Virus record (IMG/VR): IMGVR_UViG_3300044971_002537
Span: 1 to 64,000 of that record
Strand: one strand, 5' to 3'
Source: a virus
DNA: 64,000 bases
The position numbers and the translations under genes are program-made. Numbering within the stretch: the stretch's first letter is position 1; every line of letters starts with the position of its first letter. Under the pieces are notes generated by a model. The model ran no database searches, had not been told where the DNA came from, and saw only the letters and a list, made by a program, of their open reading frames with translations. This document shows positions 24,041 through 44,891 of the stretch, piece after piece.

Positions 24041-25150
24041 TTACAGCTCCACAACCCTCTCTATCACGAATGAGCGTTTCTTCCCTAATTCCCCATAGAT
24101 GGCGACCATCGCCCCGTCGTAGAGGAATCTGCCGTAGGTCTCATATTGATCAGCAAAGCACACAATATTATCGATTTCAGCGGAATCGTCGCTTGCGACG
24201 ATGAAGCACATCTTCTTGTCTGAAGACTTAATCACATGTTCTTTAACCTCAGAGATCCTTACGACGATAGTCCTCTTGCCCGGCTTACCCCTCATAATTT
24301 CTTTGCAGGTGGTATCCGCTACGCCTGCTGCTAAGCAAGCGTCCATATAGCTACATGACAGAGTAATCCCGATCGCAGCCTCCTCAGACGCAGCGATCTT
24401 CCCCGGCAGGTCGTGTAAGATTCTACCCGGATTTGTCAAGCGTTCAAGGATAATCTTCAATTTTTCTACGCGACCCTTGGTGGCACAGGCTCCACCTTCC
24501 TTCTTAAGCAGACAAGCTGCTTCCAAGGCTTCTGCTGGCGTCTTGAAGGACCTGTCCGTAAAGAAAGCCAGCTCTTTGTCGGACAGGTCAGAGAAGCACT
24601 CGTAATAGTGGAGCAGGGCCGCTCTGGAAACCCCCAGATAATGGAAGCACCCACAGTTAATGAGAGCTTCACAGGTCCTCTTGTTGATATGTGGCAGGAT
24701 TTCAGTCAGGTAGGTGACTAGGGATGCTCGAACCCCGTGAGTTCGCATTAATGCGAATAGCTTCTCTAATTCGCGATTAGCTACACCTTTGATATGGGAG
24801 AGGCCAAATACAACAGCCTCTCCCTTGATGAAGAAACCTTCCGTGAGGTATTCACACGAGGGCGGGAGAATCTCGATATTGTCCAACTTAGCAGACAGAA
24901 CCAGATTACGGACTTCCGCATGTGGATCTAACTTATGAGATGAATACTTTAACCATACCTCATAGAACTTTAGTGGTTTGTGGGCCTTGATATATGCCGA
25001 CCAATAAGAAGGGAATGAATAAGATACCGCGTGTGAATTGCTTGTAGCTACTCCGTTGGCGAAATAAATATGAGATTCTGAGTCTACCTCGATATCTACC
25101 GATCTAGAGGTTCCCAAAGAAGAGACTGAGAGTATTCTTTTAGCTTGCAT
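24041..25150 (-). CDS. dnaE: DnaE C-terminal part preceded by the C-half of a split intein
   Basis: IntC (38 aa) MQAKRIL...DIEVDSESHIYFANGVATSN, then SHAVSYS...YIKAH, FGLSHIKGV (HhH), INKRTCEALINCGCF and an OB fold (KMCFI.ASDDS). Confidence 0.9.
   Translation of the reverse strand: MQAKRILSVSSLGTSRSVDIEVDSESHIYFANGVATSNSHAVSYSFPSYWSAYIKAHKPLKFYEVWLKYSSHKLDPHAEVRNLVLSAKLDNIEILPPSCEYLTEGFFIKGEAVVFGLSHIKGVANRELEKLFALMRTHGVRASLVTYLTEILPHINKRTCEALINCGCFHYLGVSRAALLHYYECFSDLSDKELAFFTDRSFKTPAEALEAACLLKKEGGACATKGRVEKLKIILERLTNPGRILHDLPGKIAASEEAAIGITLSCSYMDACLAAGVADTTCKEIMRGKPGKRTIVVRISEVKEHVIKSSDKKMCFIVASDDSAEIDNIVCFADQYETYGRFLYDGAMVAIYGELGKKRSFVIERVVEL
25037..25150 (-). mobile_element. Split intein C-fragment (DnaE)
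   Basis: Block F/G pattern VDIEV...H.YFANG..TSN followed by a Ser nucleophile. Confidence 0.9.
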
Positions 25151-26025
25151 CCTATTTCCTCTGAACGGTTTAAAATGTCGCATTCCCATAATCTGATGAA
25201 TCTCTCGCCGGTCATTATGGCGTTCTTCTTATAGTCATTTACAGCATTTACTTTTTGAGTTTTGGTTTTTGGGCCATTGGGATAAATCTTAGGATTAGAG
25301 TGAAAATAGTCTCCGTCAACTTCGAGATACGTGTCCAGATCTATAAGGTAGAAATCGAATGAGAAGAAGGATACTCTTTTTTCCTCTTCATATTTGACAC
25401 CGATGGAGTCTAGGATTTCAGCCATTCTAATATGCGGCTTGCTTTTAGTCTGCTTGAAGACGCCTCTCTTTATCGAGGCTAGAGTAGTTTCTCTTAGCCG
25501 TTGTTTCGTCTTCTCTGAATGGGGCATTCCAGTATGGCCATGTACTAATCTTTTCTTTGCCGATTCACTTTGTTTACTCTTGGTCTCGTCTGAGAATTTC
25601 ATCCCGAGACGATCTTCTCCTATTTTCTTCATGATGTCTGAAGTATCGGCAGTCAGCCCCTTATTCCATGCTGGCTTTTTGTACATGGGGTTGTTTTCCC
25701 CAAGCCTTTCGGTCTTAGCCCTTTTTGACCACTCTAGTGTCCCCGGAGTCCTACCGCACGCTAGTTTCTTGTATCTGATGTGAGCACCAGAGATTGTGAG
25801 CTTTAGCGGTTTCTTACAAAGACCACAGGGACATTCTTCTCTAGGAATCTTTAACACATCTAGAAAGTACTCATCCAAACTTAACGAATGATCATTCTTA
25901 AGATGGTCTCTAAAAGCATGAGAGAAATATACTTTGCCGCCTCCTGCCTCCTTTTTGATATCTCCGAGTGATTTTTGACAAATTTCACATTTAGACCAGT
26001 CGTCTCGTGTAATCTCGTAACTCAT
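25096..26025 (-). CDS. Free-standing Vsr-like (DUF559/EDxHD-type) homing endonuclease with NUMOD3-like repeats
   Basis: Cys/His zinc motifs, GENNPMY, HSEKTKQRL, FDFY...LEVDGDYFHS, RLWECD; lies between the intein halves. Confidence 0.8.
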   Translation of the reverse strand: MSYEITRDDWSKCEICQKSLGDIKKEAGGGKVYFSHAFRDHLKNDHSLSLDEYFLDVLKIPREECPCGLCKKPLKLTISGAHIRYKKLACGRTPGTLEWSKRAKTERLGENNPMYKKPAWNKGLTADTSDIMKKIGEDRLGMKFSDETKSKQSESAKKRLVHGHTGMPHSEKTKQRLRETTLASIKRGVFKQTKSKPHIRMAEILDSIGVKYEEEKRVSFFSFDFYLIDLDTYLEVDGDYFHSNPKIYPNGPKTKTQKVNAVNDYKKNAIMTGERFIRLWECDILNRSEEIGCKLKEYSQSLLWEPLDR

Positions 26026-26066
26026 AGTATGGCCTTTCTTTATTAAGTCCCATACTATTGTATACG

Positions 26067-26336
26067 CTATTCCTCACACATCACTCTCTTATTTTCAGAG
26101 ATTATTTGCCACAGTGGAGTCGGAACACCATCTTCACATAGAAGCTTATGGTCTAGAGAGCATTCAATTTCATATCCGTCCTCTAAACAGACCTTGAATA
26201 GTTCCACCTCGCCATTTTCCATTTTATCTAGAACTTTAACCATGCCGTCTGGACTATTGACACAATCCCCTATCTTGAGTTCATCTATAGTTAAATTACC
26301 CCTATTAGAATCTACTATAGATAAAGGAGATACGCA
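26067..26336 (-). mobile_element. Split intein N-fragment (DnaE), 89 aa
   Basis: Starts with Cys (block A), has block B C-S-L-D-H, and ends at a stop codon. Confidence 0.9.
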
Positions 26337-27683
26337 TTTATTAAACCCGTATCTCGCAGAAGCTTTGATATTGTCAAATAGTGATTTTGCTTCTTCGTCT
26401 TTTAGAATACCGACTCTCTTACATCCAGACAAGAATTGGTTTTCCAGAGAGAATAACTTTTTCGCATCCTTCTTCGCCGCCCCCTTCATCATTGAAAGAC
26501 TGTCAGCGGAGTTGAAGCCAGACAGTATCTTACAAATTCTCAGTAGGGTTTCTTGATAGATTAGGACACCGTAAGTGTCGATCACTTTGTTAATCGGAGT
26601 ATCATCTACTGCCTCTATTCCGTTCTTTCTATCAGCATAGACCTTGGTCATTGACCTTCCGGTCGTATCCCTAGCCTGAAGCGAACCGGGACGAATCACG
26701 CTTATGACTGCTGCAAGCTCTTCGATATCGCGAGGGCGAATTTCCTTAGACCAGTCCCTGCCGAGATGATTTTCGATCTGAAAACAACCCTTAGTATTTC
26801 CGGACCCAATAACATTCCAAGCTTCTTCGTCCGTAAGGGGCACGTCTACGATCCCAACGCCGTAGGCTTCTTGAATCTTATTGAGAATATCTACCCCGAG
26901 AAAGTCGAACTTAACAAGACCGGCCTTCTCCAGCCATGCCATATCAAAGGCGGCTATCGCCGAGCCATCTTTGGCGAGGCACATTGGGCTAACTTTAGCC
27001 ACTTCCTCAGAGGAAATGATTACGCCTGCTGCGTGTTTGCCCTGATTCTGGAAGGTCCCCTCTAGGGCGATAGCCTTACGGAAGATGTCGGCGTAGTCGC
27101 CGACTAAGATACCATCCTCAATTCGGCAATAGTCTGCGATTTTATCTCCATCGTTATGGAGCATCCATGAGATGATACTGTCTTCCCCTGTCTCTTCAAG
27201 TTGGTCGGAGATGGCTGCTTCGTCGGGGATTCCCTCCGTGACGATATTCATAGTTTCAAAGTCATAGCCGCCCTCGACTCGCATGACAGCTTTAACTGCG
27301 GAACGTCCCGATAACCGACCGAAGGTTGTAATCTGGCAGACCTTGTCAGGACCATACTTGGTCCTAACGTAATCGATAGCCTTCTCACGATAGTCCGTAG
27401 GAAAGTCCACGTCGATGTCGGGGAGGGCCGTAGAGGCCTTCGTGAAGGAGCAAGGCTTAGTTAGGTCGATATGGTCGACCTTGCCCGCTATGTACATAAT
27501 GAAGGAGTTCTTGGGATTACTCCGATCAAGCTGCACGTTCTTTAGAACGTGCTCATAGTAGGCTTTACCATCCGGCAACGAGTCTCGCAGAGACTCCTCT
27601 TCCAGTAAAAAGGAAGCGGCCCCATCAGAGATTTCCAGATGGCGTTCTAAGGAAATGATTTGCTCTGTCGACAATCCGGTCAT
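26067..27683 (-). CDS. dnaE: DnaE catalytic middle part followed by the N-half of a split intein
   Basis: LPDIDVDF, QITTFG, GKHAAGVII, GLVKFDFLG, GCFQIE, RPG, TYGVLIYQE, YGFNK, then IntN CVSPLS...CSLDHKLL. Start MTGLS follows GGAG. Confidence 0.9.
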   Translation of the reverse strand: MTGLSTEQIISLERHLEISDGAASFLLEEESLRDSLPDGKAYYEHVLKNVQLDRSNPKNSFIMYIAGKVDHIDLTKPCSFTKASTALPDIDVDFPTDYREKAIDYVRTKYGPDKVCQITTFGRLSGRSAVKAVMRVEGGYDFETMNIVTEGIPDEAAISDQLEETGEDSIISWMLHNDGDKIADYCRIEDGILVGDYADIFRKAIALEGTFQNQGKHAAGVIISSEEVAKVSPMCLAKDGSAIAAFDMAWLEKAGLVKFDFLGVDILNKIQEAYGVGIVDVPLTDEEAWNVIGSGNTKGCFQIENHLGRDWSKEIRPRDIEELAAVISVIRPGSLQARDTTGRSMTKVYADRKNGIEAVDDTPINKVIDTYGVLIYQETLLRICKILSGFNSADSLSMMKGAAKKDAKKLFSLENQFLSGCKRVGILKDEEAKSLFDNIKASARYGFNKCVSPLSIVDSNRGNLTIDELKIGDCVNSPDGMVKVLDKMENGEVELFKVCLEDGYEIECSLDHKLLCEDGVPTPLWQIISENKRVMCEE

Positions 27684-27950
27684 ATTAGTCTCCGCAATTC
27701 CCAAAAGCAGTTCCAAGAATTCCACTCAGGCCATCTCCATCTCCACTGTCGGCTTTAAGCCTCATGATCCTGTCAATGCTAGCCTGACCCATTTTAACAT
27801 GGGAGAGTGAGATTTGCAAGGAGATATCTGACTTAAGCAGATTGGGATAGTCAGCCTCTAATGCTTCGGAAGGACTTCCTCGTTTTTCGAGCCAAAATTC
27901 CCACATATCTATGTTTTCACTCATGCCACTAACTGAGGACCTTAGGCCCG

Positions 27951-37293: not shown

Positions 37294-38577
37294 TTACTCG
37301 CATCCAATACCAACTGTCTTTTTTTGTCCAGATAAAACATTTCTGTCTCCTAAGAAAGATTCAACCAGAGAGTAGTCCTCTGATGTGTAACCCTTATTAT
37401 AGCGACAGTTGAGCTGTTGTATTCGGAACTTTTTGCCAACTGGAGTCAGAGATAGGTTATAGACTAGGTCGCCATCTTTGAATAGGCCACACATAACAAC
37501 CCGACCAGCGATGATTTCGCTTCGATATGAGCTTACACAATTGCCCATATAGGTTGACCATTCTATTAATTCGTGGGAGTCCTTACATGTGCGGATTGTG
37601 AACTCTCCGAGTTCTTCTCCGTCGAACTCTAGTGGTTTGAATGGGACATTCTGATAGCGTAGCTTAGCATGATAATTGGCCAATTGATCATGGTACTCAT
37701 TGAGCTTCTTAGCTTTGGAGAGGGCTAAGGGAGTAGCCTCTATGTCTATGGTGTTGGCGATCTCTGTATACATCTTAATGGTATCGTCAACCCGCCAAGG
37801 AGAGAAGCTCAGAGCAAATGTTGTTTTATCTTGGGCATTGTCCGTATCTTTCCCAATGAAGATATTCTTGAAGAAGGCAGGGTTAACGCCAATCAGGGGT
37901 TTCAACTTAGTCTTAAGTCCCACCCCCATTATTGGATGAATCGTGGTATGGATTTCTCCGAAGGTCAAGTGTCGCCTGAACATCCGTATAGTGTCCAGTA
38001 CCTCCATCTGCCTATGCTCACTTAGCTGAAACAGCTTCGCCAAGAACTTCTTACCAGAGAATCCGCAGTATGACCTGATACTTTCTTTTACCGATGGTTT
38101 CTTGAAGACCTTAACCATGTCGAAGGTTGGGGCCTTGTATAGAGAGCTATATAGAGGGTATCTTTGGTTAAGTAAGTTCACATAGAAAGGTTGGCCTATC
38201 TTGAATTTCAGGCCAAACTCTTTGTTCAAGACACGATTAATTTTGGCGTTAACACCCTTCTTCAGTTCTTTGAAGATGGATAACTGAGAGTAGGAACAAT
38301 GGTAGGCACCGGCTCCCACTGGAATACCCGAATTCTTACTAGCCACGAGTGCTATCTTGCCATTCTTGATTGAGAATGACATAACGTGCTTCGCAGATAC
38401 GGTGGCTCCGATGTTCGACCACTTGAACCAGAAGCGATTCTCGGCTATGTGGAGGTGCAGTACTTTGGAAACGAATCTGAATCCGGCTCCATGCTTGATG
38501 CGGCAAAGCCGCTTAGAGATCCGCCAGATCCTTCCTTTTTCGTTGTCGCAGACAACATATTCTTTTCGGTTCTTCAA
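37294..38577 (-). CDS. PcfJ-like protein
   Basis: C-terminal YHDQL...ELIEWSTYMGNCVSSY...IQQL..RYN. Confidence 0.65.
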   Translation of the reverse strand: MKNRKEYVVCDNEKGRIWRISKRLCRIKHGAGFRFVSKVLHLHIAENRFWFKWSNIGATVSAKHVMSFSIKNGKIALVASKNSGIPVGAGAYHCSYSQLSIFKELKKGVNAKINRVLNKEFGLKFKIGQPFYVNLLNQRYPLYSSLYKAPTFDMVKVFKKPSVKESIRSYCGFSGKKFLAKLFQLSEHRQMEVLDTIRMFRRHLTFGEIHTTIHPIMGVGLKTKLKPLIGVNPAFFKNIFIGKDTDNAQDKTTFALSFSPWRVDDTIKMYTEIANTIDIEATPLALSKAKKLNEYHDQLANYHAKLRYQNVPFKPLEFDGEELGEFTIRTCKDSHELIEWSTYMGNCVSSYRSEIIAGRVVMCGLFKDGDLVYNLSLTPVGKKFRIQQLNCRYNKGYTSEDYSLVESFLGDRNVLSGQKKTVGIGCE

Positions 38578-42792: not shown

Positions 42793-44060
42793 CTGGATTC
42801 TGGAGAATCACCAATTCTTCAGAATATACTGTTCAACGATCCAGAGAATCCTCATCCCAAACACAGATCCGGTCACAATAAGCCAGAATCCTAGCCAAAA
42901 TTTCTGATTACCGTCCAAGGTTTCGCTCCTTATAGGGGTTTATTCTTCATCATCCATCATAGACATTATTGCTGCGAATAGATAAGCTGGTAACATTAAC
43001 GGTAGAATCAAAATATTCAACCATCCTGAGCGATTGCCAACTAGCAAGAAGGTTTTAGCCAGCATAAAGATGGCTGCGAATCCAAAGATTACTGTTAGTG
43101 CTTCAATCATTGGTTAGTCCGGAAAAATCAATGGGGAGATCCACTGGCTCATGCCGATTTTTCGGCAGTTTATCCCAAGCTCGCCTATGAAGAGTTATAG
43201 TGTAGTGCGACAGCATACACCAGAAGACTTCACGATGTAGTACGTGAGTACGTTGTACATCCATAGTAGCTTCATAAAATGCATCGATATGAACAGGAGG
43301 GAAGACTGGGTAATCTATATTCTTAGGGTCAGGATCGGTAAAAAGGAAGTAGTGCTTCCCAGCATGGGGCGTTTTGAATACGCCACTATACCGAAGAACC
43401 CTTTGATAAGAGGCATCAGAACAGCATGGGATACAATGAACCACTCCACTACCGGGTAGATGACATGGGCACTTACATGGGTAGTATGGGCTTTTATACT
43501 CCACGAAGTAGAGGGCCTTGTATACAAGGCCAAATTGGGCGGCTAAAGCCTCTTGAATATCTTTCATTAGCCAGCACTACTTAAAAAGTGAAGAGAGATA
43601 TCTCCGGGGAGTTTATCCTTAAGCTCCGTCATTAACTTTACGAGATAGCTGATCTCGACTGAGCCTTCGAGTAGGTCAACCCTGCCCATATCACGTTCGT
43701 TACCGATGAATGTGCCGATACAGAAGTAGGCTTCGCCATCAGAGTCGTCTTCTTGGACATAAGAATCAAGATCAAGCTCAGCAGCGATGTTCTCAATCAT
43801 ACAACACCAGTCGTCGCTCTCTTCTCCCATGAAGACATACTTAAGTTCGGATTCCCGAACTAGAACTCTTTCAGTCCCAGTAATTTTGCCGGTTTTGGGA
43901 TTGTAGCGGTTTTGATCTTCATAGGTCGCTTCCGCTACCATTACTGTGATATCAGAGAGAGGAACCTCGATTCCTACCATGCACTTCTGCTGAAAATTAA
44001 CGCCCATTTCAACTCCAATTAACTAGGCTCACTACCAATTGTGCTAGAGCTATGCTCAAG

Positions 44061-44134
44061 TGGTCCCGGTCAGATTCCAACTGACAACTTTTTCCTCTTA
44101 AGGGAAACGCCTCTGGCAATTGGGCTACGAGACC
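44061..44134 (-). tRNA. tRNA-Leu(UAA)-like with a short variable loop
   Basis: GGTCTCG/CGGGACC acceptor, TTTCC-CTTAAGA-GGAAA, GTCAG-TTGGAAT-CTGAC, discriminator A. Confidence 0.8.
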
Positions 44135-44136
44135 AA

Positions 44137-44206
44137 GCACGAGAATAAGGAATCGGACCTTAAAAGTAGATTTTGGAGATCCACCTGCCGCCACGGCATC
44201 CTCGTG
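44137..44206 (-). tRNA. Non-canonical tRNA with a CCA (Trp) anticodon
   Basis: CACGAGGA/TTCTCGTG, GCCG-TGG-CGGC, GTGGAT-CTCCAAA-ATCTAC, TTT, TAAGG-TCCGATT-CCTTA. Confidence 0.7.
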
Positions 44207-44891
44207 AATGTTGGTCTCGAAACCAACCGGACAGCCGTTAGCCTGCCTTTGTCTATTGCCGCCGACGAATTTGGCAGACTGCTACAAGAGGCCATGTTAG
44301 TGGCCTCATTGTACTACTTACTTCTCGTTTGTCGAGTGGAAATGAATGAGTTTCCTCAAAAATTCCCAGAGGGGACGAGACGGTCTTCCCTCGTATCCGC
44401 TGCCACCGGCAGCATCCACACTGAACACCTGTACATCAAGCTGTAGATCTGAGACTACCTCTTCGACCCGACCATCCTTGAGACAGATGACTACGGTCCC
44501 ATCCACCTTGGTGGTTCCATCTAGGTTTCTGGCTGGAGTTGTTTGGATCATGGCTTCGCCTATTTGTACGGTGGGTAAGTGAGCTTTGCTCACTTTTAGT
44601 CGACGACTACCTCAACTTCCAACATTCTACATCGCTCGACGGCAAAGTCAAGAGCGTCTTGGAACATTTTGCTCATATTGGACAGCAGGAGATCGTGCCC
44701 ACTATTGATAGCTTTGATCACGCCCTTGTGTTGGCGAGCGGCAGCGTCTTTTGGATCGCCGAGCTTCTCATATTGGAGCCAATTTGGCCACAAGTGGCTC
44801 TCCCAAACACAATAGAAGAGCATCATCTCTGCTGGGGTTCCACGGACTGAGACGACTTCGTTGTCGGAACTTTTGCTTACTTTGATCATGA

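Follow-up and report, generated by a model that had tools for sequence, protein, structure and literature searches.

A compact phage tRNA-Trp that is probably functional and probably a new structural variant among tRNAs

The stretch of DNA analysed here (the window) covers the first 64 kb of the 139,854-bp IMG/VR virus record IMGVR_UViG_3300044971_002537 (completeness 72 per cent), on which ARAGORN calls six tRNAs: Arg-tct, Leu-taa, Trp-cca, Asn-gtt, Glu-ttc, and Ile-tat. The tRNA-Trp(CCA) lies on the minus strand at 44138–44205 and measures 68 nt up to its discriminator base G73 (44138), as supported by ARAGORN, by a match to a covariance model of its relatives (R1), and by covariation within a subclass of 68-nt genes. 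An ordinary tRNA-Leu(UAA) (44060–44134, minus strand), called by ARAGORN and scoring 53.3 bits against the Rfam tRNA model RF00005, is likely its partner in a common transcript. The two are separated by a 3-nt spacer, CUU (44135–44137, minus strand), that runs from G73 of tRNA-Trp to G1 of tRNA-Leu; the distance of 2 nt given in the initial annotation is obtained if C44137 is included in the tRNA-Trp. None of the six tRNAs has an encoded CCA, and G73 of the tRNA-Trp is followed by this CUU. The same trinucleotide stands at the CCA position, directly after the discriminator, in the Leu, Trp, and Ile tRNAs (44057–44059, 44135–44137, and G000 about 66461–66463, all minus strand), and may be a shared 3'-processing signal. 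On the other side of the gene, a hairpin of 6 bp whose loop resembles a T loop (GTTGGT-TTCGAG-ACCAAC; 44210–44228, minus strand) ends 4 nt 5' of the tRNA-Trp and may be a leader structure or a T-arm relic. A weak sigma-70-like promoter match (TCGACA-16-TACAAT; 44308–44335, minus strand) with 10 of 12 consensus bases lies ∼100 nt upstream of the tRNA pair, and a promoter and terminator scan of the tRNA region found nothing above chance, promoter-like sites being as frequent as expected from shuffled sequence.

The record of the carrier phage encodes RIIA, an Rnl1-type RNA ligase, and a DnaE-like polymerase with at most 33 per cent identity to that of any cultured phage. A BLAST search of the 3-kb tRNA region against cultured phages returned zero matches; among the flanking proteins, a 146-aa downstream ORF led to a single near-identical contig and the RNA ligase to none. 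The closest relative of the tRNA-Trp itself is one near-identical contig, and no diverged orthologue was found. The polymerase gene at 25096–27725 (minus strand) is possibly split: the DnaE-like homology falls in a 552-aa ORF, which is the part that the search covered, and is followed by a 309-aa ORF in a different frame.

The minimum-energy fold of 44138–44205 is a cloverleaf (−23.7 kcal/mol, z = −2.4 against shuffles) in which, as first reported, all stems pair, with two G.U pairs as the only departures. The 5' strand of the acceptor stem (44199–44205, minus strand) forms seven pairs with 44139–44145, opening with A1-U72 and including one G.U, and in relatives all seven covary with 100 per cent of alignment cells paired. 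An eighth pair, C44206-G44138, had been entertained but is not borne out: only two of eight relatives have C at −1, and G44138 serves as the discriminator, which is G in every one of the 54 related genes. The T arm (44146–44162, minus strand), evident in the sequence and in the ARAGORN call, has a 5-bp stem and the loop UCCGAUU, which indeed lacks TTC; U54 and C56 are kept and position 55 is C. U55 is near-universal in tRNA T loops.

The middle of the molecule is where it departs from the usual plan. RNAalifold, run on eight members of the 68-nt subclass with no prior model, places a 5-bp D stem directly after the 7-bp acceptor stem. The D stem closes a UGG triloop, a single spacer base leads on to an anticodon stem of 6 bp, and a variable loop of 3 nt precedes a normal T arm. 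In the window gene the D arm (44186–44198, minus strand) accordingly abuts the acceptor stem, its stem consisting of U8-A20 plus GCCG/CGGC; the anticodon arm (44166–44184, minus strand) closes a 7-nt loop, CUCCAAA, that presents the anticodon CCA (44174–44176, minus strand; sequence and ARAGORN); and the variable loop is UUU (44163–44165, minus strand; ARAGORN and RNAalifold). The 3-nt D loop, the 6-bp anticodon stem, the loop CU-CCA-AA, and the 3-nt variable loop described in the initial annotation are thus all present in sequence and fold. Its single connecting U before a 4-bp D stem is better drawn as a fifth D-stem pair with no connector, since pair 8:20 is kept in all eight subclass members (U-A four times, G.U three times, A-U once); D-stem covariation in a longer, 69-nt class supports the same arm. 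Pair 22:40, at the top of the anticodon stem, is retained in six of the eight, in three pair types. The variable loop and the spacer of the window tRNA-Trp deviate from the family consensus, and its zero-base connector is geometrically demanding. Because the GG of the D loop and C56 of the T loop are kept, the elbow contact of the L-shape would still be possible.

General tRNA models do not see a canonical cloverleaf here. RF00005, which recognises the adjacent Leu gene, gives no match to the tRNA-Trp even at E ≤ 10, so that the warning that standard scanners may miss the gene was correct for Rfam; it was not for ARAGORN, whose call of tRNA-Trp(cca), anticodon at position 30, bears out the proposed Trp anticodon. 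ARAGORN succeeds by forcing a standard D arm, in which two connector bases are kept at the cost of a mismatched 3-bp D stem; no alternative fold turns the gene into an ordinary tRNA-Trp.

The identity of tRNA-Trp rests mainly on its anticodon, its first pair, and a discriminator that is G73 in bacteria; U31-A39 is a predicted identity element (PMC9976931). The window gene carries G73, A1-U72, the equivalent of U31-A39, and the loop CUCCAAA, which together make up the identity set of bacterial tryptophanyl-tRNA synthetase (TrpRS). It also shares with bacterial tRNA-Trp the 7-bp acceptor stem, the 5-bp T stem, the GG of the D loop, and C56, and with the ∼100 ordinary phage Trp genes sampled a setting in a phage tRNA cluster. 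It differs in being 3–6 nt shorter, in the absence of residue 9 and, as in the rest of the 68-nt subclass, of any free residue 8, in a 5-bp D stem with a 3-nt loop where the ordinary molecule has 4 bp and 7–8 nt, in its 6-bp anticodon stem and 3-nt variable loop, and in falling below the Rfam tRNA threshold.

This architecture is not confined to one phage. A pattern built on the window's own D stem gave 76 matches, just two of them tRNAs. When viral contigs were searched with a pattern that combined UGG, the anticodon loop of Trp, and a T loop, ∼100 ordinary phage tRNA-Trp genes came up, together with nine in which UGG lies 12–13 nt from the 5' end instead of the usual 15–16. With a more selective pattern, 38 distinct compact Trp genes were found in viral contigs, at least 16 in bacterial assemblies, and nine in metagenomes. 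In all there are at least 54 distinct compact tRNA-Trp genes of 67–69 nt, drawn from viral contigs, metagenomes, and the prophage or tRNA-array loci of bacterial assemblies; the lengths to the discriminator among the 54 are 69 nt (n = 36), 68 nt (n = 10), and 67 nt (n = 8).

Covariation supports the compact cloverleaf at each level of this family, and compensatory changes fall in every helix, the odd D stem among them. Taken jointly, the 54 genes have 96.6 per cent of stem cells paired and between three and six pair types at 20 of 22 stem positions. In the 69-nt class, six gapless members have 97 per cent of cells paired, as against 33–44 per cent in slid controls, and compensatory changes occur in 21 of 22 pairs, including all five of the D stem. 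The 68-nt subclass (n = 8, the window gene included) is 95.7 per cent paired with 19 of 23 pairs compensatory, and none of 500 shuffles reached as high. (The MAFFT alignment A1 was excluded from the pair counts, since it misplaced the length difference at column 1.) The covariance model R1, built from six other genes without the window's tRNA-Trp, matches it over its full length (model positions 1–69) at 56.7 bits (E = 4.5e-16), a score in the lowest third of the family; the gene shares the covariation-backed class architecture of a 0–1-base connector, a 4–5-bp D stem, and a UGG triloop. The search pattern did not extend beyond the T loop, yet every one of the 54 genes has G73; pair 1:72 is A-U in 31 of them. 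The T loop of the window's type, TCCGATT, occurs in 5 of the 54, with further cases in metagenomes, and UUCGAUU in the other 49.

Of 28 arrays with at least ten tRNAs, 26 have no Trp tRNA besides the compact one, and the neighbouring tRNAs are normal. In a complete 198-kb phage the compact gene likewise stands as the single Trp tRNA, beside more than 26 normal tRNAs, and of the 34 tRNAs in another phage it alone is compact. Among the matches listed, each of the 16 copies from bacterial assemblies sits within a dense tRNA array; in the isolate Saccharopolyspora indica KCTC 29208 the copy adjoins terminase and portal genes, which places it in a prophage. A cellular housekeeping origin was rejected for these listed matches, the at least 16 bacterial-assembly copies all being in tRNA arrays or a prophage. 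Cultured phages that BLAST put forward as carriers (Enterococcus saphexaviruses, Streptomyces phage Riptide, Gordonia phage Phendrix, and Sphingobium phage Lacusarx) were also set aside: they had matched through the anticodon and T arms only, and their Trp genes are normal, at 71–76 nt. In a tree of 53 columns with the D arm omitted, the compact genes cluster, requiring 25 changes where shuffled labels require 46 ± 2.8, a result compatible with one or several origins.

That the same design recurs in at least 54 phage or prophage genes argues for a maintained design and against a pyrrolysine-type tRNA. On this comparative evidence, the compact build is a design maintained across a phage-borne tRNA-Trp family rather than a one-off or a decayed gene. 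No description of a compact phage tRNA-Trp was found in the searchable literature, which is no proof of novelty, and phages go unmentioned in a review of non-canonical tRNAs (PMC7609411). The compact phage tRNA-Trp is probably a new structural variant among tRNAs, and the gene is probably functional.

Several further loci are recorded in their own right. A bacterial class A RNase P RNA match (RF00010, 166.9 bits with a gathering score of 100) lies at L127:340–627 (minus strand; G002 about 37474–37761), inside a 34-gene tRNA array of a 62 per cent GC viral contig; it spans 288 nt against a 367-position model and may be a shortened phage-encoded RNase P RNA. In the phage G006, a CUA tRNA at L215:6687–6759 (plus strand), labelled 'tRNA-Pyl' by ARAGORN, stands in the same array as a compact Trp gene and has a compact D arm (one connector base, a 5-bp stem, and a UGG triloop), G1-C72, U73, and an encoded CCA. 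In 80 kb of this phage (31 per cent GC), TAG ends just 1 of 44 long ORFs, but TAG read-through does not lengthen genes. Locus L100 of a 30 per cent GC phage contig (689–761, 7779–7847, and 7943–8016, plus strand) holds a compact Trp gene, an ordinary Trp gene ∼100 nt downstream of it, and a tRNA with a CUA anticodon that ARAGORN miscalls as His(atg); L217 likewise has both types of Trp gene. Compact tRNA-Cys(GCA) genes with a reduced connector and a tiny D loop were seen at L079:1067–1134 (plus strand), L145:10186–10255 (minus strand), and L347:3737–3806 (minus strand). The Cys and Trp anticodons differ by one base, and both read UGN codons.

We hold it likely that the window gene gives the phage a functional tRNA-Trp, one whose core has been miniaturised. 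Its processing, charging, and decoding, which we infer from sequence, might proceed as follows. Transcription would probably yield a dimeric precursor of tRNA-Trp and the tRNA-Leu(UAA) next to it, from which host RNase P and 3'-end enzymes would excise the tRNA-Trp; the host CCA-adding enzyme would supply the CCA end, host TrpRS would charge it by way of G73, A1-U72, and the CCA anticodon, and it would decode UGG during infection. No CCA-adding enzyme was found in the phage record, and a search of the record for pylS or a phage aminoacyl-tRNA synthetase, advised in the initial annotation, found no TrpRS-family gene and no PylS. With no encoded CCA and with none of these enzymes in the record, maturation and charging would have to be the work of the host. 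Phage T4 offers a precedent in its dimeric tRNA precursors and in tRNAs without an encoded CCA that the host matures, and the present pair is alike in having two tRNAs a few bases apart on the same strand with no CCA encoded. T4 is not known to encode a tRNA-Trp, and the cores of its tRNAs are standard; the window phage, with its DnaE-like polymerase, is not a close relative of T4.

As to why the core is so small, compaction could be a form of evasion: some host or rival factor that senses a canonical core or elbow, for instance a tRNA nuclease or a surveillance system that depends on modifications, would be avoided, and use by TrpRS, EF-Tu, and the ribosome would be kept. Such an explanation would suit the fact that, across the whole sample, compact Trp genes occur in phages, prophages, and mobile tRNA arrays and nowhere else, as well as the constancy of the architecture despite heavy sequence turnover in phages of 30–68 per cent GC, and the Rnl1-type RNA ligase encoded in the same region as the window's tRNA-Trp. 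However, no Trp- or D-arm-directed defence was identified in this analysis, the window gene has a fully canonical anticodon loop, which is where anticodon nucleases usually strike, and the presence of one compact tRNA per array in most cases would be odd for general evasion. We regard evasion as rather unlikely.

Altered decoding is a further possibility, and a slim one. The remodelled hinge would make the molecule a natural Hirsh-type tRNA-Trp(CCA) that, through altered kinetics of selection on the ribosome, reads UGG faster, or UGA at selected sites, with no change of anticodon and no recoding of the genome; it would supplement the decoding of Trp codons and not replace it. The Hirsh mutation G24A and the mutation A9C, which let tRNATrp(CCA) read UGA, act among the D-arm and hinge residues 9–12, 23–26, 44, and 45, and a 4-bp anticodon stem has the same effect in Escherichia coli (PMC13092985). 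The compact class has residue 9 deleted and the 26/44–45 region rebuilt, and the window's subclass also has a longer anticodon stem. Among the loci sampled, moreover, Trp genes show the compact build about ten times as often as genes for other isotypes (7 of ∼109, against ∼5 of 836), and the few non-Trp compact tRNAs that the model aligned are mostly Cys(GCA), likewise a reader of UGN. The likeness to the UGA-reading variants is that a D-arm hinge or an anticodon-stem length has been altered; those variants, however, are point changes or have a shortened stem, whereas the window tRNA has a lengthened stem and a rebuilt D arm. Against such decoding, TGA ends 45 of 126 long ORFs in the window phage, where TGA read-through does not lengthen genes and no TGA recoding is seen, and it is an ordinary stop likewise in six other carrier phages of 30–62 per cent GC. 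Genome-wide recoding of TGA or of TAG was rejected for the window phage and the six carriers.

Compact tRNAs other than Trp were also met with, namely the Cys(GCA) genes, one CUA tRNA with a compact D arm, and one Met. A general cause (tolerance, evasion of core-recognising factors, or inheritance within mobile arrays) seems more likely than one specific to Trp.

It might also be supposed that the gene is decaying, a non-functional relic of a tRNA-Trp after base loss in the D arm. The mismatch to the Rfam tRNA model, the C at position 55, and the score in the lowest third of the family would all fit a relic, and no diverged orthologue was found in which constraint on this particular copy could be seen. 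But a relic would not be expected to have every stem paired save for two G.U and every Trp identity element intact, nor would its shortened design recur in at least 54 genes with compensatory changes and serve as the sole Trp tRNA of most arrays. Decay is accordingly very improbable.

The resemblance to tRNAPyl that gave the gene its initial description concerns the outline. A tRNAPyl is marked by the universal identity elements G73 and G1:C72, the anticodon CUA, an anticodon stem of 6 bp, and a variable arm of 3 nt. In M. barkeri there is a lone U8, the 5-nt D loop lacks GG, and the T loop lacks T-Psi-C; the M. alvus form, with no connector at all, is the sole known case of a zero-base connector (PMC7609411). 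In common with tRNAPyl (M. barkeri, D. hafniense, and the M. alvus type) the window tRNA has the 6-bp anticodon stem, the 3-nt variable loop, G73, a compact core with a tiny D loop, and a connector of 0–1 base, so that the likeness stands for connector, D loop, anticodon stem, and variable loop. It differs in having CCA and not CUA and A1-U72 and not G1:C72, in a D loop, UGG, that keeps GG, and in a T loop that keeps U54 and C56 with only position 55 changed; and the cognate synthetase PylRS is absent from the record. The proposed kinship with tRNAPyl, and with it the significance of an anticodon one base from amber, falls away before the Trp identity set, the covarying Trp family, the retained GG and C56, and the lack of PylS. 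PylRS ignores the anticodon (PMC7609411), which together with the common outline leaves some room for a tRNAPyl-type tRNA, or one otherwise orthogonal, that PylRS or a private synthetase would charge, but neither a PylS gene (TIGR02367; no match in the 139,854-bp, 72 per cent complete record, while a control genome with PylS scored above the cut-off) nor a TrpRS-family gene accompanies it, the first pair, the GG, C56, and the anticodon are all wrong for such a molecule, and G73 and CCA throughout the family point to an ordinary bacterial TrpRS, so that we give this reading almost no credence. The likeness to tRNAPyl is most simply convergence on one workable route to a shrunken tRNA core.

The closest architectural match for the working tRNA-Trp proposed here is the type I mammalian mitochondrial tRNASer(UCN), a compact molecule that keeps GG and T-Psi-C (PMC7609411). 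The two have in common a reduced connector, a small D loop that retains GG, a 6-bp anticodon stem, and a 3-nt variable arm. The mitochondrial tRNA is organellar, of Ser identity, and of an unrelated lineage, and the window tRNA has C55 in place of the U from which Psi-55 is made and apparently no free connector base; the match is one of architecture only, and no common descent is claimed.

Bacterial translation is generally assumed to need a canonical tRNA core, compact cores being known mainly from mitochondria and from tRNAPyl. From the family described here it would follow that a core 3–6 nt smaller is acceptable to RNase P, the CCA-adding enzyme, TrpRS, EF-Tu, and the ribosomes of bacteria. 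It also bears on how phage tRNA repertoires are counted, since general models miss or under-score compact Trp genes (RF00005 passed two of the eight members tested, and ARAGORN missed 9 of 53), and such repertoires will therefore seem to be without Trp. For tRNA engineering the compact class would supply natural scaffolds of small size, and it would allow the influence of the D-arm hinge on tRNA-Trp decoding to be tested on natural variants.
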